A stretch of DNA of 64,000 bases from Candidatus Woesearchaeota archaeon (GTDB lineage: Archaea > Nanobdellota > Nanobdellia > SCGC-AAA011-G17 > UBA489), in contig CAYFJW010000004.1 in NCBI GenBank assembly GCA_964343875.1, positions 18,395 through 82,394 on the forward strand, written 5' to 3'. A program made the translations under genes and the position numbers. The notes beneath the pieces were generated by a model. It had not been told where the DNA came from and did not search any database. It saw nothing but the letters and a program-made list of their open reading frames with translations. This document shows positions 1 to 47,064 of this stretch, one piece after another (positions within the stretch are counted from its first letter, which is position 1; each line of letters starts with the position of its first letter).

Positions 1-541
1 CACGCTCTTCTAAATATGGTTTGAGGGCTTTAACGAAGCTTTTGGAAAGGATGATATTACGATCCTTCTTGCCCTTTCCTGCCCTTACTGTGCCCATGTT
101 CTCATCTAGATCTAAATCATTTACACGTAGTTTAACGGCTTCTGAAACTCTTAATCCTGAGGAGTATAGAAGCTCAATTAGAAGGCGGTGTTTAGGGTTT
201 TTGGCAGCTTCTAAGAGACTTTTTACTTCATCCATTGTAAGAACTGTAGGTAGTTTCTTTTCGATCTTAGGGGCTTTTATATCACCCATAATGTTTTTCT
301 TAAGAACGTCTTTGAAGTAGAACTTAATTGATGATAAGGCTAAGTTTATTGATGCGGGTTTTAGTTTTTTAGACGTCATTAAATGTGCAATGTACCTCTT
401 TAGATCTTGTTCTTTTATCTGTCTGGTGGGCTTTTGTGCGTAGTTTAGGAATTCTAAGTTTTGTCTAATGTAATTCTTAATTGTAACATCAGAATATCCT
501 CTAATTTTTAATTCCGTTTCTAAGTCTTCTAAGATCTTACA
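1..541 (-). CDS. Tyrosine recombinase (XerA/XerC-like integrase), N-terminal SAM-like domain and start of catalytic domain; 3' part lies beyond the window; no in-frame ATG at the 5' end
   Basis: Minus-strand translation gives LEDLETELKIRGYSDVTIKNYIRQNLEFLNYAQKP...LTMDEVKSLLEAAKNPKHRLLIELLYSSGLRVSEAVKLRVNDLDLDENMGTVRAGKGKKDRNIILSK. This contains the canonical G-x-R-x-x-E first catalytic Arg box and the gKGkK-R motif of phage-integrase-family recombinases. The ORF track misses it because it runs off the window edge and lacks an ATG. Confidence 0.75.
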
Positions 542-815
542 TCACCTTTTTGTTCGTATAATCTAAGAGAATAAATGTTTATATATTTATGGAGCGTGTA
601 AAGTAACTAGTGAATATTAGGAAGAGTCGAAGAGGAGGGGTGGAAAGGAAAGTTCATGATAGGCCGCTTCCTAGACTTCTTGATCCTTTTCATGCTAGAG
701 GGGTGTTTCCTATTAGGCGTGTGAGGGTTGATAGACCTTACTTCCCAAACAAACCAAAACCTGGGCCAGTTTATTTGGGGCCTGTTAGGAGAGGTAGATA
801 CGTGGGTGTTGCCTA

Positions 816-1532
816 GTGGGGCGTGTCCCCAAACCTGAAGTTCTTGATCAATTAGTAGAAATTAGCTTAGATGAGTTTAACAATGGGCACCACATTAAGG
901 ATCTGCCAGAGTTTAATGTTGCTTTTACAAGATATCCTTTTGAGAGAAAGCCAACTACTGCGAAAGATAGATTGAGCAAGGGCGTTGGTTTTAGAACAGG
1001 TGCTAAAAAGGATGCCTGGATGGAAAAGGCTGAGGCGTTTGCTAAGAGGAATCATAGATTTAGATATTGTGCTTTTGAGAGGACAGAAGATACAGTACTT
1101 AGATTCCGTCGGAAGACATCTGCGATTTCTAGGTTAATTATTGAATCCTACCTTGGTCTTGAACATGAGTATTCTCATCCTGATAAGTTAATAGTTGTAA
1201 TGGATGGCCCTGAATTTGGTAGGGGTGATGGAATGGGGGCAAGATCAAAAGCTGTTGTTGAAGAAAACTTGAGAGAGTATGGGTTGGAGAGCGAAGTCTT
1301 CTTTCGTGTTCGTGCTGACCAAGGTCAAAAACATCCAGCGGCATACATTGCAGATAGACTTGCATATCTGATTGCTGTTATGTATCGTGATAGTCTTCCT
1401 CGTTTGGAGTGGCCATTCCCAGAAAGAAGGGTGGATCTTAGTTTGCCACTTCCAGTTACTGCGGATGAACTAAGGTATATGGCCAGATTGTTAAAAAAGG
1501 GTTCTAGAGGCGGGTCTCACAGCTTTGAATAG
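816..1532 (+). CDS. Hypothetical protein; C-terminal half weakly resembles the DUF3800 / RNase-H-like pattern (IVVMDGPEF ... AAYIADRLAYLIA)
   Basis: 238-aa ORF with GC above the window average and no antisense competitor of comparable length. Motif resemblance is from memory only. Confidence 0.45.
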   Translation: MGRVPKPEVLDQLVEISLDEFNNGHHIKDLPEFNVAFTRYPFERKPTTAKDRLSKGVGFRTGAKKDAWMEKAEAFAKRNHRFRYCAFERTEDTVLRFRRKTSAISRLIIESYLGLEHEYSHPDKLIVVMDGPEFGRGDGMGARSKAVVEENLREYGLESEVFFRVRADQGQKHPAAYIADRLAYLIAVMYRDSLPRLEWPFPERRVDLSLPLPVTADELRYMARLLKKGSRGGSHSFE

Positions 1533-1591
1533 TGGATTCGTATAATATACATTATATGAAATTTTATAAACATTCAATTTATTAAATTCCT

Positions 1592-2224
1592 ATGATCCCA
1601 AGAGATTTAAGGCTGGTCCTAGTGGGAGTAATTAGCACCCTGGTCTTTCTTACTATTGCGCTCTCTCTCATTCTTTACTCTGAAATACTTCGGGAACACC
1701 AAGGAGTTGTAGCCTTTTTATCACTTCTCATATTGATCCTTGTATTCGTAGGAGATAAGTGGTGGGATCGTGAAAGGAGAAGAAAACAAAAGATAAATGC
1801 CTTATTGGCATTGTCAAGGCAGACGGACTATCTCAAGAGGAATCTTAAGTATGTAAAAGGGGCCATCCCTAAAAGGATAATGCCTGTCCATATACTTTCT
1901 TTGTATAACATTTCTTGGGAGCACTTTCCCATCTCTGTAGATGGTAAGAGCACTAGGGATTTGTATGAGCTTGCCACATTCATAGACGATAAGATACGTA
2001 CCCTAAATGAGAGGAGAGCAGAAATACTACAAATAGTACTTACTTACGACACAGTGGAAAGGAAAGAGGCGATGGTGGAAAAGTACTATAAATCTTTTGG
2101 GGAGGCCATAACTGAGGCGCTTGAAGGATTGGTAGATGGCTTAAATGCGATCACTACCATATTTTATAGGTGGGGCATTTACCCTTTAGATGGTTCAACA
2201 AGATTAACCAAATTATTGAAATAG
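1592..2224 (+). CDS. Membrane protein (2 N-terminal TM helices plus soluble domain), hypothetical
   Basis: 210-aa ORF with hydrophobic N-terminus (LVLVGVISTLVFLTIALSLILY, FLSLLILILVFVG). Confidence 0.45.
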   Translation: MIPRDLRLVLVGVISTLVFLTIALSLILYSEILREHQGVVAFLSLLILILVFVGDKWWDRERRRKQKINALLALSRQTDYLKRNLKYVKGAIPKRIMPVHILSLYNISWEHFPISVDGKSTRDLYELATFIDDKIRTLNERRAEILQIVLTYDTVERKEAMVEKYYKSFGEAITEALEGLVDGLNAITTIFYRWGIYPLDGSTRLTKLLK

Positions 2225-2225
2225 G

Positions 2226-3014
2226 GTGAAATTTTTTGATCTTGTTCAAAAAGCTTATTATCTTATCAAAAAGGATAAAACTATGGTATTGAAAGGTGAA
2301 GTTGTTGGCAGGCGGGATATTGAAGAAATTCGGCGACTATTTCTTGTTGCGTTTACAATTAGCATATTTATGCTAATGACTATCGAAAGATTTCTCAACC
2401 TTAAAATTGCAGAGGATATACTCACCCATACACCAAATGAGCTAACTCTGCGTTTTTCAATTGGAGTAGGTATCTATGTTTTTGCGTATCTCTTCTTTGG
2501 GGCCTGGAAGGAGCATCATAAGAACCTAGCCTCTTGCCTGATTTATTCGCTGAAGATAAACATTTTTCTTATGGGGGTTCTCATTCTTCATGCTGGTACG
2601 GTCTCAGTCTCTTACTTATGGGACACCTATTTGGGGTTGATAATTAATGGATGGATTGTTTTCCTAATCAACCATCAAGTTGTGTGGAATGGATTTCCTT
2701 TTCTAACATTCTTTTTTGCATCTTTGGGAGTGATATACGAGAATGTAAAAACATTTAAGCTTCTGGAAGAGGGTTTTTTTGTGTTTCAAATTAAAAAAAT
2801 AATTAAAAGAACATTCTCAAAACCAAGGATTAAAGCTAGTATTCATTTTAGTCTGGTTCTGGGTGTGACATTGTGGGCCACTACAGTCTATAGGGCTGCA
2901 GAGGGTAAACATTGGGCGTTTTATATAGGTGCATGGTTACTAATTGCATTTATCTTGTTAATTTTCGGTGGGTCTTTTTTAGACATTTTAGACAAAGAAA
3001 AAAAGTTCACATAA
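2226..3014 (+). CDS. Polytopic integral membrane protein, hypothetical
   Basis: 262-aa ORF starting 2 nt after the previous stop, with multiple hydrophobic segments. Confidence 0.45.
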   Translation: MKFFDLVQKAYYLIKKDKTMVLKGEVVGRRDIEEIRRLFLVAFTISIFMLMTIERFLNLKIAEDILTHTPNELTLRFSIGVGIYVFAYLFFGAWKEHHKNLASCLIYSLKINIFLMGVLILHAGTVSVSYLWDTYLGLIINGWIVFLINHQVVWNGFPFLTFFFASLGVIYENVKTFKLLEEGFFVFQIKKIIKRTFSKPRIKASIHFSLVLGVTLWATTVYRAAEGKHWAFYIGAWLLIAFILLIFGGSFLDILDKEKKFT

Positions 3015-3075
3015 CATATCTTAGGCGAAGTATAATCCGCCCTGCCAGTAGAGCCCCCAGCGAAGCCGAAAGAGA

Positions 3076-3204
3076 CTATTCAGGCACTTCCTGCCTAAAA
3101 CCGCACTTCTTGCAGTATCTGATGTGGAAGGAACCATCTGAGAATTTATGTTCTCCGTCGTGGAGTTTATCACCACATTCTGGACAATTTTCTTTGAATT
3201 TCAT
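3076..3204 (-). CDS. Small C4 zinc-ribbon protein (42 aa), not in the ORF track
   Basis: Minus-strand ORF MKFKENCPECGDKLHDGEHKFSDGSFHIRYCKKCGFRQEVPE with CPxCG...CKKCG. It overlaps the antisense + ORF 2912..3208, which looks spurious. Confidence 0.5.
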   Translation of the reverse strand: MKFKENCPECGDKLHDGEHKFSDGSFHIRYCKKCGFRQEVPE

Positions 3205-3241
3205 GTGAAAATTACTTGTTAGCAATGCTTAAAAGTTTTAG

Positions 3242-4180
3242 CTATGCTGCCTGGAATTTTGGACTCAAGAATCTTGCACTTTCAAGTATCCGTGGCATGT
3301 TTACTGGGGCAACTTCTTCTGGGTTCTTACCTGAAAGTTGTGCAAGGTCATTAAGCAATCTAACATATGCAGGTGTTACTTCAAAACCGCCCACAACTGG
3401 GGAGAACCTAGTATAATGTCCTGGTTCTTTAGCAGGCCTGTAAACTGCAGGGCATAATTGCGGCTTGTCCATTGTGAGAATTGAATCTACTCCTACGGGG
3501 ATAATGCCTCCCTCTTCACGTATTGCCTGATATTGTCTTGTACGCCTCATGTTTCTGTGTTCCATTTTTTGGTCTTGAATTCCAACGCCTCTGTATGTAA
3601 TGGCTTTTGCAAAATGAGCCTTAACTCTATCTACAAGCTCTCTCTTTTGCGACAAGAATAAATCTCTGTCTTCCAAATACCTTCCCCGTGCTTGGTTTTG
3701 AGCGACAGAGGTAAGAAATTCGTAGTTTTCGGAGTCGCTTAATGCATCAAAGTGGGCAACTGCTTGCCTGAATTCTGCTGTGTCGGGTGTTTGGAATCCT
3801 TGTAATACGTCAGATGTAAGTTGTTTTCTTTTGCTCCTTAGAGCGTCTGTAATTGCTCTATAGACTCTTGTAGCAGAGCTTCCGCTTACAACCTCATCAA
3901 TACCCATGAGATGAATTCCGTGGTCTTCATCAACCACCTCATCTAGAAAATTGCCCATCCAGTCCCTCATGACTAATTGGACTTGAGCAATACCGCTTGA
4001 TGCCGGCATATAGAAAACCTTCTGTGGATCAAAATCCTCACCAACGATGTGCATTGCATCTATGAAGGGTACAGAGCCCATCATGGGAGCTATAATTGCG
4101 TCTGGTGAGCTTTCATGGAATATCTCTGCGGCTTCTGCCATCCCTCGTTTAAAGTCCACTAGCGCTTCTCTAAAATTCAT
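3242..4180 (-). CDS. Hypothetical protein with an N-terminal phosphoribosyltransferase-type (PRTase) fold motif and a C-terminal domain of unknown function
   Basis: IHLMGIDEVVSGSSATRV matches the type-I PRTase PRPP-binding signature (four hydrophobics, D-D/E, two hydrophobics, S/T-G-x-S/T). Local GC is elevated relative to the window. Confidence 0.45.
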   Translation of the reverse strand: MNFREALVDFKRGMAEAAEIFHESSPDAIIAPMMGSVPFIDAMHIVGEDFDPQKVFYMPASSGIAQVQLVMRDWMGNFLDEVVDEDHGIHLMGIDEVVSGSSATRVYRAITDALRSKRKQLTSDVLQGFQTPDTAEFRQAVAHFDALSDSENYEFLTSVAQNQARGRYLEDRDLFLSQKRELVDRVKAHFAKAITYRGVGIQDQKMEHRNMRRTRQYQAIREEGGIIPVGVDSILTMDKPQLCPAVYRPAKEPGHYTRFSPVVGGFEVTPAYVRLLNDLAQLSGKNPEEVAPVNMPRILESARFLSPKFQAA

Positions 4181-4244
4181 GTTTCTGCGTGGAAAGTTGA
4201 TTATTTAAAACTTCCTATTTGTAATTACCTCAGAATGACAACAG

Positions 4245-4898
4245 TTATTTCTTCTTTGGTTCTGGCTCGGGCTCGGCCTCCTTTGGCTGTTTGACTTCGT
4301 TATCCTTGAAATAGGACTTTCCTTTCTCTGTAATGGCTATATAGGTCTGTTTGCCCTTTCTTAGCTTGTGGATGAATCCAGCATCTACGAGGATTCCAAT
4401 GTACTCAGAAACCGTGGATCTTACCTTGTCGTAGGATTTACCAGGGTAGAGGTCAGAAGCCAGCGTTTTTAGAGCAGTCCACTCTTGGCCGGACTCTCTT
4501 TGGAAGGCACCCAACCTAAAAAATATGGCTTTTTGTGTTTCAGTCAAGTCGTCCAAGGGGGTTCGTTCTATTCTCGGAGGTAATTTTTCGTTTTCATAGT
4601 CATAGTATGGTTTTTCTTTTGAGCTCTCTCGAGTTTTTGGCTGCTTTTGAAGGGAATTTTCCCTGTCTGCTAGGTAGGACATGACTTGGCCGATCTCCTC
4701 TATCCTGGATTCCATGTTTTTGAATCTGTCACTGTATTCTTCGTCCCTTGTTTTGAAAAAAGAAAGCCAATCACGGACTACTTTGATGTCCGACTTGATC
4801 CTTGTGAAGGAATGTTTCAAGTTTTCGGAGATTTGATTGACGTGATCGAGCGCTTTGTTAACTTCCGACCTCTTTTTTCCAAAGAACAAAAACCCCAT
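4245..4898 (-). CDS. Coiled-coil plus C-terminal winged-helix (MarR/TrmB-like) DNA-binding protein; paralog of 5516..6157
   Basis: C-terminal TETQKAIFFRLGAFQRESGQEWTALKTLASDLYPGKSYDKVRSTVSEYIGILVDAGFIHKL has a wHTH pattern. The N-terminal half is heptad-like and the tail is lysine-rich. Confidence 0.55.
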   Translation of the reverse strand: MGFLFFGKKRSEVNKALDHVNQISENLKHSFTRIKSDIKVVRDWLSFFKTRDEEYSDRFKNMESRIEEIGQVMSYLADRENSLQKQPKTRESSKEKPYYDYENEKLPPRIERTPLDDLTETQKAIFFRLGAFQRESGQEWTALKTLASDLYPGKSYDKVRSTVSEYIGILVDAGFIHKLRKGKQTYIAITEKGKSYFKDNEVKQPKEAEPEPEPKKK

Positions 4899-4902
4899 GC
4901 GA

Positions 4903-5110
4903 TTTAGACGTAGACGTTATTTATAAATGTAACTCATGTGTAGGAGACGTCCCTCTACATTCGTAGACGGGTGTAGACGTGTCGTAGACGGTTCGTAGAC
5001 GCGTTAATCGACGCTTTTTATAAAGAAAATGACCATTTACAGACGGGATCGACGCATTTTTGAAGGTTTTTCGAGAAATTCGAAAAGTGAGAAAAAGGTC
5101 ATCGACGCGT
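4903..5110. repeat. Iteron array: at least 6 direct copies of (C)GTAGACG followed by 3 copies of ATCGACGC, in the intergenic region between two paralogous wHTH genes
   Basis: tagacgtagacg (4905-4916); gtagacg at about 4963, 4973, 4984 and 4994; cctctac (inverted) at 4951; atcgacgc at about 5007, 5047 and 5101. Confidence 0.65.
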
Positions 5111-5515
5111 AAAAATTTTTGAAAAAAAGTTGAAAAAAGGCTAAATTCTTTCGGTTGAGGTTTTGTGAGGGTTAGAAGGGAGCCTGAGGAGGGATGAAAA
5201 AAGTAGAAAAAAGGTGCTGAAAGGTACGCTTATTTTGGAAAAGGGAGGAATAGGAAAGAGGGTGGTCAGGAATACCCTAGAATGGGAGAAGTGAGAAAGA
5301 AAAATAGGTATTGTTGGTGGACGGGGAGGAGCCGAGAAAGGTGCAGGATCTGCCCTATTTCCCATAAGTGAGAGCTAGTCATGAGAAGAGGGCTCCAAAA
5401 GTATCTATTTTAGGCGTTTTTGTGAGAAAATGATGCGTCGACGGAGGGTTTGAAGAGTGATTAACTCGGAAGAATACTGCTTTATTTCGAAAAAGTGAGA
5501 GATGAATTGAAAGAA

Positions 5516-6157
5516 CTACTCAAAAAGCGTAGTTTGATCAGTTGGATTCTCTCTGAGACGGATCAATTTATTGAGAAGGTTTAGGTCGTGAAAGTCTTCT
5601 TTTACCAAAAGTGAGGTTTTACGGTTGAAATGCCTCTCTTTCTTTAATGGGAGGCCTTTGGCCATTAGGCGGTTTGCAACGCCTCTAACGGTCGGTTCTG
5701 TTAGATTTAGGTGATTTGCAAGAAGTGAGTAGTTGACTTCTCCTTGCTTTTCTAGGTCTAAAATAGCCATGAACACCGAGAATTCCCTATCTGTGAGGGT
5801 TTTGAACTGTTTCTCAAAGTCCCTCTCTAGGGCCTGTAGGGTCTTTTTCGGAATGTTTTGTTGTCTTTCGTTGATGGTTGTTGACTGTTGATCGTTGACT
5901 GTTGATCGTTGATGATCGTTGATGACCCCTTTATTTCCAGTGGAGGCCTCTTTAAAGGAGGCTAAAATGGTCTTTATTTCTGTTATACCTTCTTTTAAAT
6001 CGTTTATTTTTAAATTAATCTCCTTAATCTCTGATTTATTGGATTTGGAGGTGCTTTCAAGGCTTCCTAGGCCTGTTTTTAAACTTGAAATGTCGTTTTT
6101 TACATTAGAGAAGGAATTCCTTATCTTTTCCTTAAAGGAGCTATCATCTTCTGCCAT
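5516..6157 (-). CDS. Coiled-coil plus winged-helix DNA-binding protein with an internal Q/N/D-rich tract; paralog of 4245..4898
   Basis: C-terminal REFSVFMAILDLEKQGEVNYSLLANHLNLTEPTVRGVANRLMAKG is a wHTH. The internal VINDHQRSTVNDQQSTTINERQQ tract is encoded by GTTGATCGTTGAC tandem repeats at 5870-5930. Confidence 0.55.
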   Translation of the reverse strand: MAEDDSSFKEKIRNSFSNVKNDISSLKTGLGSLESTSKSNKSEIKEINLKINDLKEGITEIKTILASFKEASTGNKGVINDHQRSTVNDQQSTTINERQQNIPKKTLQALERDFEKQFKTLTDREFSVFMAILDLEKQGEVNYSLLANHLNLTEPTVRGVANRLMAKGLPLKKERHFNRKTSLLVKEDFHDLNLLNKLIRLRENPTDQTTLFE

Positions 6158-6270
6158 TTTAGAGGGGATATTGGGGGCATTAGAATTATATAAGTCTTAC
6201 TTGTTGATCACTGTTGTTCATTGTTGATGATCGTTGATCATTGTTGACTAACCCCTTTATTTCCCATGGA
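5870..6270. repeat. GTTGAT(C/G)GTTGA(C/T) tandem repeats, with a degenerate second copy of the 5870-5945 segment at 6187-6270 in the intergenic space
   Basis: tgacccctttatttccagtgga (5925-5945) recurs as taacccctttatttcccatgga (6248-6270). The second copy encodes MGNKGVSQQ-stop, a truncated duplicate of the TGNKGVINDHQ segment of the 5516..6157 protein. Confidence 0.6.
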
Positions 6271-6784
6271 AATCCTTAGAAATCTTGTAGTAGAGCGCCA
6301 GGAAAGCCTCTTTTTGGGGTTTTAGGCCTACGGCGAGGAGTTTTTTAACTAGGTCTTGCCCAACGACCTTTTCTGTGCCTGTAGGAAGCTCGTAGCGCAC
6401 GATTTGGACAAGGGTTGGGCGGGATATGAATCCCTCATTTACCTGCAAACAGAGCTTCTGACCTGTTTCAATGCTTTTCACGACTAAATTGAATAGATTT
6501 ACCCTGATATCTCCACGGATGAATATATCTTTTTTGGCTTTAGCGAAGCCATTTGATAGGAGGAGCTCCTCTAGCATCGCTTTTATGGTTTGTTTGGCTG
6601 ACTGTTTGGGATTGTTTAGTGTTGATTGTTGATGATTGTTTAGTTCGATTACACGGCCTAGATAGGCTGAAACCTTTTGTTTAGGGTGCCTCTTGCTTCT
6701 TTTACGTCGTTTTGTAAGAACTAGGTATGCATATTTCCTTATACTTCCAGAAGTGTTTTTTCTTGTCTTAGTTCGTATATACAT
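6257..6784 (-). pseudogene. IS1634-family-like (IS4 superfamily) transposase N-terminal fragment, 175 aa, truncated at the duplication junction
   Basis: N-terminus MYIRTKTRKNTSGSIRKYAYLVLTKRRKRS...KQKVSAYLGRVIEL resembles the IS1634 transposase N-terminal pattern (MFxRxKxxKNGK.Y.YLVES.R...K..Q..LxxLGR). Full-length IS1634 transposases are about 450-550 aa, and there is no DDE domain here. Family resemblance is from memory. Confidence 0.4.
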
Positions 6785-6836
6785 ATGGTAGTGGGCACTA
6801 CAAAGAGATATATAAAATTAATGGAATTAAGAAGTG

Positions 6837-7289
6837 TTAGGATGCCTTTGGCTTGCCTTTTTCCGTAGCTTTTTCGGATTCCTTGGACTTTACTGCTATC
6901 CTTGGTAGGGATATGTGTGGTGGTAATCCTACTTGTTGTGATAATGAGAGTGCCATGACCCCGCATTTTGAGAAAATGTAATTTACTAATTGTCCAGAAA
7001 GTGAGGGATCAATCTTTGAGTGCTTGTCCCAATCCTCTAGGACCTTGTCTCTGGTTGCTTTGTCTGTTAGGAAGTGGATATGACCTATGATCTCTGTTTT
7101 GGCTACGTTTGGTAAGTAATCTACTTTGTATGAGAATTTGAATTTGAGTAGTGATTGGCCTGTTATTCCGTCAGGTGTTGGGTATTCTGCAATATCTAAG
7201 AACTTTATTCCGTTTTTTGCTTCTATCTTGCCTGTTATTTGGCCTGTCTTGTCTACGGATATTTTGTCCAGAGTAAAGTGAATTATCAT
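6837..7289 (-). CDS. Hypothetical protein
   Basis: 150-aa ORF with typical local codon usage; no recognisable motifs. Confidence 0.4.
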   Translation of the reverse strand: MIIHFTLDKISVDKTGQITGKIEAKNGIKFLDIAEYPTPDGITGQSLLKFKFSYKVDYLPNVAKTEIIGHIHFLTDKATRDKVLEDWDKHSKIDPSLSGQLVNYIFSKCGVMALSLSQQVGLPPHISLPRIAVKSKESEKATEKGKPKAS

Positions 7290-7324
7290 TGTGATGGGTT
7301 GATATTAGGGGATTATAAAACTTA

Positions 7325-9205
7325 CTATTTGGCTCTCTTAATCTTTCTTAGTAGGCTCTCGTGGCCCTTCCACTCGAGTGCCTCTTCGAGGATTGTTTCA
7401 AGTTTATCCGCTAGTATGATTTTTACCTTTCTTTTATTTTCTGGGCTTAGAAGGATATCATTGGCATTTGCTTTTGGTACAATTACTGTTTTGATTCCTG
7501 CCTGGATTGCAGCTTCAATCTTTTGTGTGACTCCTCCGACTGCTAGAACTTCACCTCTAACTGATAATGATCCTGTCATGGCTACATTTTGTTTTATTGG
7601 TACTTTCTTTAATGCTGAGATAATTGCTGTTGCTACTGCGATTGATGCTGAATCCCCTTCTACGCCACCGGACTCGGATGCAGTTTGTAGGAATTGGATA
7701 AAAATATCATATTTTTCTTTGATATCTTCTCCGAAGTATTTTAAGATGATTGCTGAAACATTTTGAACTGCTTCTTTTGCTATTTCTCCAAGCTTACCTG
7801 TTGCTATGAAGTCAGATCTCTTTCCACCAGGGGTAACTTCTGATTCAATTGGTAAAACTAAGCCGGAGAAGTATGAATCTGATCCCATTACTGCTAGTCC
7901 GTTTACTCGACCTACTCGAGATCCAGTTGTAACAATTACTTCGTATTTCTTTTTGTTTTCAATATACTTGTCTACTATTTGTTGTTCTAGTGTTCTTGCG
8001 AATTTCTTAGCGTTGATTACATGGATGGGTTGGACATATTTTGATTTTTGTTCAAGTGCTAAATCTCCTGCTGCCCTCACTAGGCCACCTAGCTCTCTTA
8101 ATCTAAGTGTGAGTTTCTTAGATGTTCCAGACCTTATTCTTGCTTCTTGGACTATTGTATCAACTGCTTCTTTTGTGAAGTGCGGGATTTTTTTATCTTT
8201 GTTAACTTCTTGTGCTACGAAGACTGCTAATTTGTATTGGTTTTCTGGAGTGTCATTCATTGAATGATTCATGTTTATTTCATAGCCATAACCTCTTATC
8301 CTGGATCTCAATGCCGGGTTCATTCTCTTTATTGTATCGGGGGTTCCAGCTGCTACTAAAATAAAGTCTGTTGGTGCTTCTTCTGAACGAACCATTGCAC
8401 CCGATGATCTTTCTGATTGCCCTGTTATTGGATATTTTCTTTCTTGCATGCATGTAAGTATCTCTTGTTGTGTTGCTGGGTCCATGTTGCCAACTTCATC
8501 TATGAATAATACTCCCTTGTTTGCTTTGTGTATCATCCCTGGAACTAGCCTTTCGTATGCTGGTGTTCCTAATCCTCCACTTTGTAATGGGTCGTGTAAT
8601 ACATCTCCTAAAAGTGCTCCTGCGTGACTTCCTGTTGCGTCAATGAAAGGTGCTTTTTCTTTTCTTGAATTGTCTATTAACATCTTAGGGACTTTTACTC
8701 CCTTTCTTGCTTTTTTATTTAAATTGAGGAATAAGATGAATATTGCTATGAACATCATGGATGAAATTAAGGATGCTGCCGCCATAATATCTCCATATTG
8801 TTTTCTAACCCACCATGGAGAGAATATTGATATTGCTATTAAGACATAGAAGAAGATCATTTGACCTTTGAATTGTTTTAAGGATTCTATTTTGAATTTG
8901 TTAACGTGTTTTGTTCCTTCTCCTCTTGGGAATGTTTTGATTATTGGATTGTGTTCATCTGATGGGTTGTCAAAGGATAAAACGTCATCTAATTCACTCT
9001 TGGGAATAAGTTCAGCCAGTGCTTGACCGGTCAAAGATTTACCTGTTCCAGGTTCTCCAATTAAAAGAACGTTTCTTCTTTGTTTTGCAGCTTTTCTTAT
9101 AATATCGACCGCTTCTTCTTGACCAACAATTTGGTTAACGGTAGATGAACTAGTCTCTATGTCTTTAGTTGTTTTAAACTTCTTAACAGATTTGGAACTA
9201 GCCAT
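7325..9205 (-). CDS. lonB: Archaeal membrane-bound ATP-dependent Lon protease (LonB)
   Basis: Walker [10 protein letters not shown]; a membrane-insertion segment with 2 TM helices inside the AAA+ module; C-terminal Lon proteolytic domain with catalytic Ser context ([19 protein letters not shown] ... [24 protein letters not shown]); 626 aa. Confidence 0.92.
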
Positions 9206-10207: not shown

Positions 10208-10610
10208 GGCTGTTTAAAAAAGAAGTAAGTTATAAATCTGTTGATAGAGTCACACCTTGATTTCTTATGGAATAAAAATTAAGAGAAAAAAGGTGTGGAT
10301 TAAGAGTAGAAAACGTAAAAGTAAAGAAGAAGGTCTGTATTTACTGTTTTTTGTATTTTATTATATTTTACTTATAAGATTAATTATTATATTATATTAT
10401 ATATTATAATATTTATTTTATTATTTATATTTTCTATTTATTATTTTATTTTTTGATTGTTGATGAGATTGGTGGTGATTAGGATGTTGATTGTTTCCGG
10501 GAATTTCTATTTTTGTTTATAAATAATATCTCCATTGGAAACTATGGTGTGAGAGTTTTATTTGGTATCACAGATATACTTAAATAAAATCTGCAGTTTT
10601 AGCAGGATTA
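10207..10610. promoter_or_regulatory. Candidate chromosomal replication origin (oriC): two inverted ORB-like boxes flanking an AT-rich unwinding element, immediately upstream of cdc6/orc1
   Basis: ORB-like tccattggaaactatggtgtgag at 10531-10553 (+). Its inverted partner tccataagaaatcaaggtgtgac is the reverse complement of 10247-10272. An AT-only tract lies at about 10370-10450. The core ctCCAtTGGAAAc matches the archaeal mini-ORB consensus TCCAGTGGAAAC with one mismatch. Confidence 0.6.
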
Positions 10611-46910: not shown

Positions 46911-46992
46911 GAAGAACTAGTCGAATTATTGGCCCAACTTTAGGAAATGCCTTTGCCAGAATATCTTTATTGACTTAGTTAAACAAGATAAG

Positions 46993-47064
46993 TAGGCGAG
47001 CGGAGAATTGAACTCCGGTCTTAGTCTCCGCAGAACCACGTACTATCCACTATACTACTCGCCT
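46993..47064 (-). tRNA. tRNA-Arg (anticodon GCG)
   Basis: Minus-strand sequence AGGCGAG-TA-GTAT-AGTGGATA-GTAC-G-TGGTT-CTGCGGA-GACTA-AGAC-CGGAG-TTCAATT-CTCCG-CTCGCCT-A folds into a cloverleaf. It has a 7-bp all-Watson-Crick acceptor stem, a D-loop with GG, U33, anticodon GCG, purine 37, a 5-bp T stem with TTCAATT loop, and a 4-nt variable loop. CCA is not encoded. Confidence 0.75.

Follow-up and report, generated by a model that had tools for sequence, protein, structure and literature searches.

The stretch of DNA analysed here, hereafter the window, comprises 64,000 nucleotides of contig CAYFJW010000004.1 from a Candidatus Woesearchaeota archaeon and has a GC content of about 37%. The region under study is its left end, where nine to ten open reading frames (ORFs) extend from a minus-strand recombinase ORF at the left edge to the gene of the LonB protease (7325-9205). 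A sequence-only reading had taken this region for the scar of an integrated mobile element. Our analysis points instead, with a probability that we put at roughly 0.7, to an origin-side chromosomal neighbourhood in the left 7 kb, composed of a housekeeping XerA/dif module, a variable stretch bounded by Xer sites, and a conserved block of winged helix-turn-helix (wHTH) genes that bears origin recognition box (ORB) motifs. The features on which this interpretation is based are the following.

1-541, minus strand: the 5' 180 codons of xerA; the whole gene has 288 codons (L001:13640-14506 in the parent contig, see below), with a likely ATC start at 535-533, 6 nt after GGTGA
551-561, plus strand: dif half-site TGTTCGTATAA, between the conserved TATA-like box of xerA and its start codon; maybe a pseudo-dif or an operator
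816-1532, plus strand: h238, a divergent RNase HII-like protein, in the cassette between half-site and dif
1535-1562, plus strand: dif, GATTCGTATAA-TATACA-TTATATGAAAT (11-6-11, 28 bp), the single match in the window at up to 8 mismatches
1592-2224, plus strand: tm210, the first of two genes in the cassette that extends from dif to the second site, encoding an orphan membrane protein; no family match and no homologue in the 80 related loci
2226-3014, plus strand: tm262, the second gene in that cassette, encoding a multi-pass orphan membrane protein
3004-3031, plus strand: second dif-like site, AGTTCACATAA-CATATC-TTAGGCGAAGT, overlapping the tm262 stop codon; position weight matrix score 19.4, against 7.8 for the next candidate
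4245-4898, minus strand: wH217, a coiled-coil and winged-helix protein, syntenic across Woesearchaeota, with weak wHTH profile matches
4899-5515, no strand: non-coding gap (0.2-0.7 kb in relatives) with five copies of CGTCTACG, four of GCGTCGA, four of AAGTGAGA and two TATA-like boxes
5516-6157, minus strand: wH213, a coiled-coil and winged-helix paralogue of wH217, whose linker carries DNA elements
5925-5944, minus strand: ORB-like 20-mer TCCACTGGAAATAAAGGGGT, inside wH213 and followed by a 10-bp array at 5858-5924
6251-6270, minus strand: second ORB-like 20-mer, overlapping the h175 stop codon, with a 10-bp array at 6201-6247
6257-6784, minus strand: h175, a conserved protein with a basic N-terminus and a fold without known relative; internal 10-bp array at 6599-6652; full length and syntenic in 21 relatives
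10253-10549, no strand: predicted oriC, with inverted ORBs at 10253-10271 (minus strand, TCCATAAGAAATCAAGGTG) and 10531-10549 (plus strand, TCCATTGGAAACTATGGTG)

The left flank missing from the window was taken from the 88.8-kb parent metagenome contig (locus L001; window position equals 14181 minus the L001 position). Related loci were collected by a scan for LonB with one genome per species, which yielded 80 loci, titled mostly Woesearchaeota, Nanoarchaeota or Nanoarchaeia, with a minority of 'uncultured Methanosarcinales' or 'archaeon'. Four further contigs of this strain, obtained in other runs or assemblies, were each 100% identical to the window across the region, giving five contigs in total. 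On the right, LonB is followed by a PRC-barrel gene, a gap of 29% GC, the Cdc6/Orc1 gene and the genes of two PolD subunits. Searches with each region protein against the 80 loci (tblastn) revealed that the order PolD–Cdc6–gap–PRC–LonB–h150–h175–wH213–(0.2-0.7 kb non-coding gap)–wH217 is retained as LonB identity falls from 88% to about 64%, and the block from h150 to wH217 holds its place by LonB–oriC–Cdc6–PolD in dozens of Woesearchaeota. In many of these loci xerA follows 0.7-8 kb past wH217, usually succeeded by h88 and PAC2. The sequence-only reading had allowed for an element that continues leftward out of the window; the parent contig shows there an 88-amino acid gene (h88), DUF192, the PAC2 proteasome chaperone and more housekeeping genes, and h88, DUF192 and PAC2 are the genes that follow xerA in relatives as well. 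In a single locus (L008:10204-11372) only xerA is inverted relative to h88 and the remaining neighbourhood, and dif is 2.4 kb off. The whole would represent a chromosomal origin-proximal neighbourhood in the order PolD-Cdc6-oriC-PRC-LonB-h150-h175-wH213-gap-wH217-(Zn ribbon)-variable stretch-dif-xerA-h88-DUF192-PAC2.

The recombinase ORF opens directly after a TGA at window position 541 (C-K-I-L-E-D...) and leaves the window at its left edge. In the parent contig it runs uninterrupted for 288 codons, with the catalytic residues R/K/HxxR/H/Y all present and the motifs SGLRVSE, GKGKKDR, CHALRSS, LLGHSD and TQRYT in its translation. It was the only region protein with a significant Pfam match, and scans of the region with PHROGs, NCBIfam and PADLOC found nothing beyond it. 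The protein scored 259.1 bits with the NCBIfam equivalog NF040815 (recomb_XerA_Arch; cut-off 220), which is covered over positions 2-262 of 263 from residue 6 onward, and the N-terminal SAM-like domain PF13495 was matched at positions 1-83 of 85. The closest solved structures are IntI4 and the XerA structures 4a8e/5hxy of Pyrococcus abyssi and Thermoplasma. Judged by these sequence features, the recombinase is a complete housekeeping chromosomal XerA that is cut only by the edge of the window. Its earlier description as a partial integrase without a start codon was accordingly correct as to the missing canonical start in the ORF after the TGA at 541, and mistaken as to the gene, which appears partial only through the window edge. 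A partitioned SSV-type int gene, a pseudogene or a frame error had also been suggested; these options were abandoned in view of the coverage of the XerA model, the complete set of catalytic residues and a non-ATG start that is common to relatives. The ORF is single and continuous, the window contains no second recombinase fragment, and since no part of the XerA protein is missing, an SSV-type partition is excluded. Assignment to the integron integrases was rejected as well: the score with TIGR02249 was 230.5 bits against a cut-off of 265, and the alignment to IntI4 (2a3v) breaks into two stretches that skip chain residues 181-236, the IntI-specific insertion being absent. With the IntI cut-off and insertion not attained, an integron reading of the co-oriented ORFs beside the recombinase was likewise dropped; the intergenic gaps measure 2-62 bp and therefore leave little or no room for attC sites.

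The first in-frame ATG of xerA is codon 55. No canonical start was found at the conserved N-terminus in any of three relatives (L006, L007 and L024): the start region reads GGTGA-TGT-AAG-ATT in L007 and GGTGA-TGC-ATT-ATT in L006, the closest relatives, and GGAGGG-GTT-ATT-ATT in the 59%-identical homologue of L024. The homologous start codon is ATC or ATT in the window and in these three loci, and ATG or TTG in L034, L062 and L063; the ATC/ATT position is three residues ahead of a conserved L-E-T-E-L-K motif. The mode of Shine-Dalgarno spacing in the window is 6-7 nt, and the distance between GGTGA and ATC is 6 nt. This conservation and spacing suggest that XerA may be translated from a near-cognate AUC/AUU codon with GGTGA as the Shine-Dalgarno sequence. 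A frameshift at the start, in which ATG-T-AAG would contain a 1-nt insertion, is improbable, given that ATT is kept at the start position in L006 and L024, where this ATG context is missing. The products of automated gene calling are shorter: 234 or 204 residues for this strain, 279 for a relative.

The dif at 1535-1562 is located about 1 kb from xerA and agrees at 20 of 28 positions with what we take to be the dif sequence of E. coli. A stretch of 34 nt just 3' of h238, in which dif is contained, is 97% identical to L007, while the neighbouring proteins are about 28% identical. A palindromic arm model derived from 12 dif sites was scanned over all related loci, and placed the best site 33-2438 bp from xerA in 20 of them. 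In nine loci (L017, L020, L022, L024, L051, L055, L056, L062 and L067) this site lies 33-140 bp upstream of xerA with nothing in between, and in the window's clade and a few other loci it lies 0.4-2.4 kb away. The sites scored 17-20, against background scores of about 2-10 in loci without a strong dif. A degenerate 24-nt dif pattern was recovered from 76 contigs of public metagenomes; in some 20 of them it lies within about 100 bp of a XerA homologue, and in roughly ten more within a few kb of one. The same pattern also occurs on the human-gut contigs L090, L099, L144 and L150, without a detectable XerA homologue of this type nearby, and may be there by chance or represent the dif of another archaeal or bacterial lineage. 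An early dif candidate, the AT-rich palindrome 3' of xerA (L001 14554, ATTATAATAAT-TAATTA-AATATTATAAT), was rejected for its poor conservation and its resemblance to origin DNA of low complexity. Together, XerA and the dif at 1535-1562 are predicted to constitute a xerA/dif module with dimer-resolution activity.

Two further sites resemble dif. The exact 9-mer TTCGTATAA has two copies in the 64 kb, one within dif and one at 553-561, the latter in the same orientation as in dif, with a partly matching spacer and a divergent second arm. The half-site to which it belongs (551-561) matches dif at 9 of 11 left-arm positions and diverges in the right arm, and with an arm score of 13.0 it ranks third in the window; the pattern of two copies recurs in L006, L007 and L060. 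Located in the 5' leader of xerA, the half-site may have a role in XerA autoregulation. The second dif-like site has counterparts in L006 (9585) and L007 (17592), with the common spacer GATATG; these sites are 75-89% identical across genomes and their flanks 18-38%. When all dif-type sites of the three genomes (L001, L006 and L007) were compared, identity was 75-93% within the sites and 18-40%, which is about random, in the 60-nt flanks. Arrays of several dif-like sites were found in L010, L046 and L063. The array of L010 (16881-18984) consists of four sites with a spacing of 0.5-1 kb and scores of 11-19.5; it lies 3' of a gene for an RNase HII-like protein and may represent an array of cassettes.

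Close relatives differ from one another only in about 560-4180, and the part from about 560 to 3030 is divided by XerA-type sites into segments that bracket the RNase HII-like gene and the two orphan membrane genes. The h238 protein has no Pfam match; its family profile matched RNase HII (PDB 1eke) with an E-value of 2.5e-8 over 160 residues. The family is rare, with 32 representatives among 1.84 billion proteins, and the AlphaFold2 (AF2) model, built with three homologues in the alignment, had a predicted local distance difference test (pLDDT) score of 38 and is unusable. One or two genes of this family occupy the segment between xerA and dif, with paralogues beside xerA in L006, L007 and L060, and the members are 23-52% identical between genomes whose XerA is 82-84% identical. 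The genes between sites differ in each genome: two orphan membrane proteins occur here, and unrelated ORFs occupy the same position in L006 and L007. No homologue of tm262 was found in the 80 related loci or in JGI metagenome contigs.

Comparison with relatives shows that the ancestral arrangement was a dif located 33-140 bp from xerA. In the clade of the window, DNA would have been inserted at dif, placing the RNase HII-like gene between half-site and dif and the two membrane genes between dif and the second site. The likely route is that XerA integrated or exchanged circular DNA molecules with a dif-like site, as in the bacterial integrative mobile elements exploiting Xer (IMEX) and in pdif modules. 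Traits of IMEX and dif modules found here are an insert without a recombinase of its own, a host dif accompanied by a degenerate site, and empty sites in relatives. The arrangement looks like site-specific insertion by way of the host XerA and unlike an element with an integrase of its own, and Xer-site-bounded insertions in about 560-3030 are plausible.

The alternative to be taken most seriously is ordinary gene turnover at a rearrangement-prone spot, in which the half-site and the second site are regulatory or due to chance and XerA is uninvolved in gene acquisition. It is favoured by the fact that no cassette was seen in another context or excised, by homologues of h312 (the phosphoribosyltransferase (PRTase)-like protein at 3242-4180) that move among unrelated housekeeping contexts without such sites, and by the AT-richness of the region, where near-palindromes are common. 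The sites nevertheless score 17-20 against a background of about 2-10, the second sites of three genomes share the central GATATG within unrelated flanks, the breakpoints of homology coincide with the sites, and several relatives (L010, L046 and L063) have site arrays. Turnover of this kind is a minority explanation that we consider unlikely, and insertion bounded by Xer sites is preferred for this stretch.

To the right of the variable stretch lies the conserved block. Comparison of wH213 with wH217 by hhalign gave a probability of 97.3% and an E-value of 2.5e-11 over 159 columns (controls <1%), so that the earlier description of two paralogous coiled-coil wHTH proteins is well founded; these proteins of 213 and 217 residues have weak winged-helix and coiled-coil matches in Pfam. 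The iteron array that had also been noted consists of five copies of CGTCTACG at 4909-5001 (four exact, one with a mismatch), phased at 10-11 bp within 110 bp upstream of wH217, and no further exact copy occurs in the 64 kb. The array is kept in relatives, its unit being CGTCGACGAC, CTAAGACGT, GTTATATAACT or TCACTAAACAA according to lineage. To it was added a second class of arrays with a 10-bp unit, at 5858-5925 in the wH213 linker, at 6201-6247 in the spacer between h175 and wH213, and at 6599-6652 inside h175; the positions of these arrays are conserved and the unit is ATCAACAATC, CCGAACAATG, CACGCAACAA or AAGCAGTTAAGC by lineage. The linker peptide INDHQRST of wH213 is the 10-bp unit read in three successive frames. 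The arrays may be acted on by the wHTH proteins, or act by intrinsic curvature of the DNA.

The gap between wH213 and wH217 contains further repeats: AAGTGAGA, which reads TCTCACTT on the gene strand, and GCGTCGA occur four times each, at 5085-5500 and nowhere outside the gap. An alignment of six genomes has CTCACTTTT conserved at three positions; it could be a terminator, promoter or binding site. The gap has no Rfam match at E<=1, and its middle aligns poorly between relatives. One gene of the block, h175, had been regarded as an IS1634-like transposase fragment (6257-6784), which is contradicted by its full length and synteny in 21 relatives and by the lack of any match to a transposase model or plasmid; it has no Pfam or NCBIfam match at E<=0.1 and no PDB match by family profile.

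The 20-mer TCCACTGGAAATAAAGGGGT comprises the mini-ORB core dyad (TTCC...GGAA) and a G-string; archaeal ORBs are characterized by the core motifs 'TTCC' and 'GAA' plus a G-string (PMC1904270, PMC1868953). A degenerate ORB pattern gave 76 matches in 1.3 Mb, and 63 of these fall in the cdc6–PRC gap or in wH213, which represent 4.7% of the sequence (P 2e-70). The cdc6-PRC gaps account for 31 matches, which in at least 7 loci form inverted pairs 246-295 bp apart around an AT-rich stretch. In the predicted oriC of the window, this stretch measures about 110 bp (about 10340-10450), directly upstream of cdc6 (start about 10612). The intragenic ORB copy is 4.3-4.6 kb from this predicted unwinding element. 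The second copy, which precedes the spacer array and is out of frame with h175, occurs in five genomes (the window, L006, L007, L008 and L010).

The possibility of an extrachromosomal source was addressed by searches of mobile-element collections. The sequence-only reading had proposed that the wHTH proteins be compared with plasmid and virus sequences; single-protein scans of the wHTH proteins, h175 and h312 gave no matches in plasmid, phage and IMG/VR collections, the IMG/VR viral contigs having been searched with one wHTH gene. h175 had no tblastn match at E<=1 in 72,556 plasmids. PHROG and PADLOC gave no meaningful mobile-element matches, and a defence island was discarded as a candidate, PADLOC yielding only weak coiled-coil or wHTH noise.

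An older event could still underlie the conserved block, namely the capture of a plasmid origin or partition cassette, consisting of wH213/wH217, ORB and array, that became fixed beside oriC and maybe serves as a second origin or centromere. Capture of origins from extrachromosomal elements has reportedly been proposed for Sulfolobus oriC3/WhiP. The pairing of a small DNA-binding protein gene with upstream 10-11-bp iterons would fit such a cassette, as would the ORB inside the module and the atypical composition here and in some relatives. Against this, the module has no Rep, Orc or NTPase gene, its two ORBs are in direct orientation with no AT-rich element between them, extrachromosomal homologues were not found, and the shift in GC content at third codon positions (GC3) is inconsistent across relatives. 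A captured replicon therefore appears improbable, and the block is better regarded as part of the origin-side neighbourhood.

The ORB in wH213 encodes the peptide S-T/I-G-N-x-G-V in 30 of 36 orthologues, and it might be argued that the motif is a mere footprint of this conserved peptide written in unusual codons, with no DNA element involved. The codons are near-invariant, however: the serine is TCC in 29 of 30 cases (background 12%), the first glycine GGA in 30 of 30 and the second GGG in 25 of 25 (background 16%), with P-values of 1e-14 to 1e-26 for conservation at synonymous sites. Moreover, the 20-mer is intact in L060 in another reading frame (VPQEIKGS) and lies on the opposite strand in L014, the second copy in five genomes is non-coding or out of frame, and the same motif marks the cdc6-adjacent origin. 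A peptide footprint is thus very improbable. The codon choice, the independence of frame and strand, the out-of-frame second copy and the clustering in cdc6-PRC gaps and wH213 indicate that the ORB is conserved as DNA, and by these signs TCCACTGGAAATAAAGGGGT is the ORB of this lineage. Orc1/Cdc6 is predicted, most likely, to bind the copy in wH213. In combination with the arrays, this ORB would constitute a nucleoprotein site with an auxiliary role in organising or regulating the origin, at 4.3-4.6 kb from the unwinding element.

Several points weigh against the interpretation as an origin-side neighbourhood with Xer-bounded insertions. Orc1 binding at the intragenic ORB and protein binding at the arrays are predictions from sequence. 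No excised circle, recombinant junction or copy of a cassette in another context was detected among the related loci and JGI metagenome contigs, a search that is a weak test because databases are sparse for this lineage; all five contigs of the strain are identical. The half-site beside xerA might be no more than an operator, and the second site has an ambiguous orientation with respect to dif. A Shine-Dalgarno sequence accompanies only about one gene in three here, and the AUC start is based on conservation and spacing. In Thermococcales, dif lies in the terminus region (PMC2958812), and by comparison a dif beside oriC is unusual. Composition is a further point. The comparison of signatures that had been suggested earlier bore out a tetranucleotide deviation at 3651-7300 (z 3.3), the strongest of the 64 kb, and found 1-3650 unremarkable (z 0.4). 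GC3 is raised in the block 3651-7300 (0.51 in wH217, against a window mean of 0.31); some relatives share the rise while others do not (p 0.07). Because the rise is inconsistent in relatives, composition is no marker of foreign DNA here, and a foreign origin of the conserved block on the grounds of GC3 was rejected. The greater GC-richness attributed to three genes by the sequence-only reading is real: 816-1532, 3242-4180 and 4245-4898 have GC contents of 0.423, 0.440 and 0.431, against 0.368 ± 0.026 in the 57 ORFs to the right.

Direct repeats and a tRNA, which had been proposed as marks of the junctions of an element, were searched for in 21 kb around the region: there was no tRNA, and direct repeats were not beyond chance and none was att-like. 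The sole tRNA in the 64 kb, tRNA-Arg GCG (46992-47064, minus strand), is located where GC skew turns negative (47-49 kb) and is unrelated to the region. That the whole of 1-7300 is the remnant of one integrated plasmid or virus, with a split (SSV-type) or decayed integrase and with the wHTH genes and iterons as its replication or partition module, is hardly credible, since the features that had suggested it (a recombinase without canonical start, phased direct repeats adjoining wHTH genes, deviating GC and tetranucleotide composition, and an integron integrase among the top PDB matches) are opposed by an unbroken recombinase ORF that covers the full XerA model, the lack of tRNA and att repeat, the synteny of the wHTH/iteron/h175/h150 block with LonB-oriC-Cdc6 over an order-level range of genomes, the absence of homologues in plasmid, phage and viral collections, and a left flank of conserved chromosomal context. 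What endures of the single scar of about 7 kb are smaller insertions, at about 560-3030 and bounded by XerA-type sites; the conserved wHTH block and the chromosomal XerA are incompatible with the remainder.

Four further genes complete the region.

610-816, plus strand: h68, a 68-codon ORF of doubtful reality in the insert between xerA and dif; no family match and no homologue in the 80 loci
3076-3204, minus strand: zinc-ribbon gene of 42 amino acids (CxxC...CxxC), in a 170-nt block kept in L006, L007, L060 and L010 with third-position variation
3242-4180, minus strand: h312, a PRTase-like protein of a small family, in a variable slot between wH217 and the zinc-ribbon gene
6837-7289, minus strand: h150, a conserved protein downstream of LonB, adjoining it in the closest relatives; found in 46 of 80 loci

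The zinc-ribbon gene lies between h312 and tm262, has a conserved promoter resembling a BRE/TATA element, and, being short, is missing from the ORF lists and from the annotation of the contig. No PDB or Pfam match was found for h150. The PRTase fold earlier attributed to the protein at 3242-4180 gained some support: the AF2 model of h312 has a pLDDT of 93.6, and its top Foldseek matches are PRTases of the hypoxanthine-guanine type (HGPRT), covering an N-terminal core of about 120 residues with a probability of 0.99, an E-value of only 8e-3 and TM scores of 0.36-0.38. In addition, the invariant D95-E96-x-V-S-G-x-S resembles a phosphoribosyl pyrophosphate (PRPP) loop. Homologues of h312 form only 27 clusters; the two with a named source are from Woesearchaeota, and none has a Pfam domain. 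Three homologues sit in unrelated housekeeping contexts. In a Woesearchaeota metagenome-assembled genome with an h312 homologue (L088:13746-17601), a reverse transcriptase (RVT_1 and HTH_40) and a Bro-N protein interrupt the ribosomal-protein/RNA-polymerase cluster, and in another relative (L089:7608-8154) a pair formed by DUF7557 and a ParE-toxin-like protein lies beside ftsZ.

A more far-reaching proposal, which we offer tentatively and judge less probable than not, is that the XerA/dif system of Woesearchaeota acts as a platform for gene capture, an archaeal counterpart of IMEX and pdif in which small cassettes are swapped at an origin-side dif. Separately, under the same proposal, the adjacent block would be an undescribed origin-associated nucleoprotein element, in which a predicted Orc1-binding ORB in a wHTH coding sequence is combined with lineage-specific phased repeats bound by both coiled-coil wHTH paralogues, its role being centromere-like, in replication timing or as a secondary origin. 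In the literature searched, Xer-dependent capture of cassettes is known from bacteria, with no archaeal case; should it operate in DPANN archaea, it would provide a route for gene flux without an element-encoded integrase in reduced, symbiotic genomes. An intragenic ORB that is kept whatever its frame or strand is a clean case of a DNA signal overriding coding constraint, and gives a concrete candidate Orc1 target for this lineage. The locus also calls for caution in annotation: a tyrosine recombinase without ATG, wHTH genes and iterons resemble a prophage scar yet can be core chromosome, and gene callers truncate xerA in this clade.

Among known systems, the SSV-type ('suicidal') archaeal integrases share with this recombinase only the seeming lack of an N-terminal start: the gene here is unpartitioned, its SAM-like N-domain and catalytic domain are contiguous, it scores as XerA, and there is no att duplication or tRNA target. 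The conserved block resembles iteron plasmid origins and ParR/parC centromeres in having direct repeats with a phasing of 10-11 bp, which can be detected at 20-22 bp too, just upstream of a gene for a small, dimeric-looking DNA-binding protein, with a unit that co-varies with lineage. It differs from them in being chromosomal and syntenic in many genomes, with no Rep initiator or partition NTPase nearby and no plasmid homologues. In Thermococcales, the dp1 gene, which neighbours oriC, contains a cluster of ORBs and mini-ORBs (Matsunaga et al. 2007, PMC1904270). As there, the boxes described here are inside a protein-coding gene a few kb from oriC, in an order-wide arrangement; the host gene, in contrast, encodes a coiled-coil wHTH protein and not a polymerase subunit, the ORBs number one or two, each followed by a lineage-specific 10-bp array, and their binding by Orc1 is predicted.

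With bacterial IMEX (CTXphi, TLCphi and the gonococcal genetic island) and Acinetobacter pdif modules, the variable stretch shares an insert without its own recombinase and site arrays that bracket unrelated accessory genes. The difGGI consists of a host dif plus a degenerate site that keeps one arm and has lost the other (PMC5357621), and the insert in the window is alike. The differences are an archaeal host with a single XerA and no FtsK, and cassettes of only 1-1.5 kb, known from sequence alone, which hold an RNase HII-like gene or membrane proteins and no phage or conjugation functions. Our literature search found no report of archaeal IMEX or dif modules. The locus is also related to the archaeal XerA/dif system for chromosome-dimer resolution of Pyrococcus abyssi and Sulfolobus (Cortez et al. 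2010, PMC2958812), with which it shares one tyrosine recombinase that passes the XerA equivalog model and a 28-bp site of 11-6-11 structure. A dif near xerA has been reported for Sulfolobales (PMC2958812), an arrangement named the 'xerA/dif module' in a review (PMC5357621). Unlike in that system, the module described here lies about 9 kb from the predicted oriC and not in the terminus region, its xerA is without a canonical start in this clade, and it contains inserted genes that separate xerA from dif as well as additional dif-like sites.

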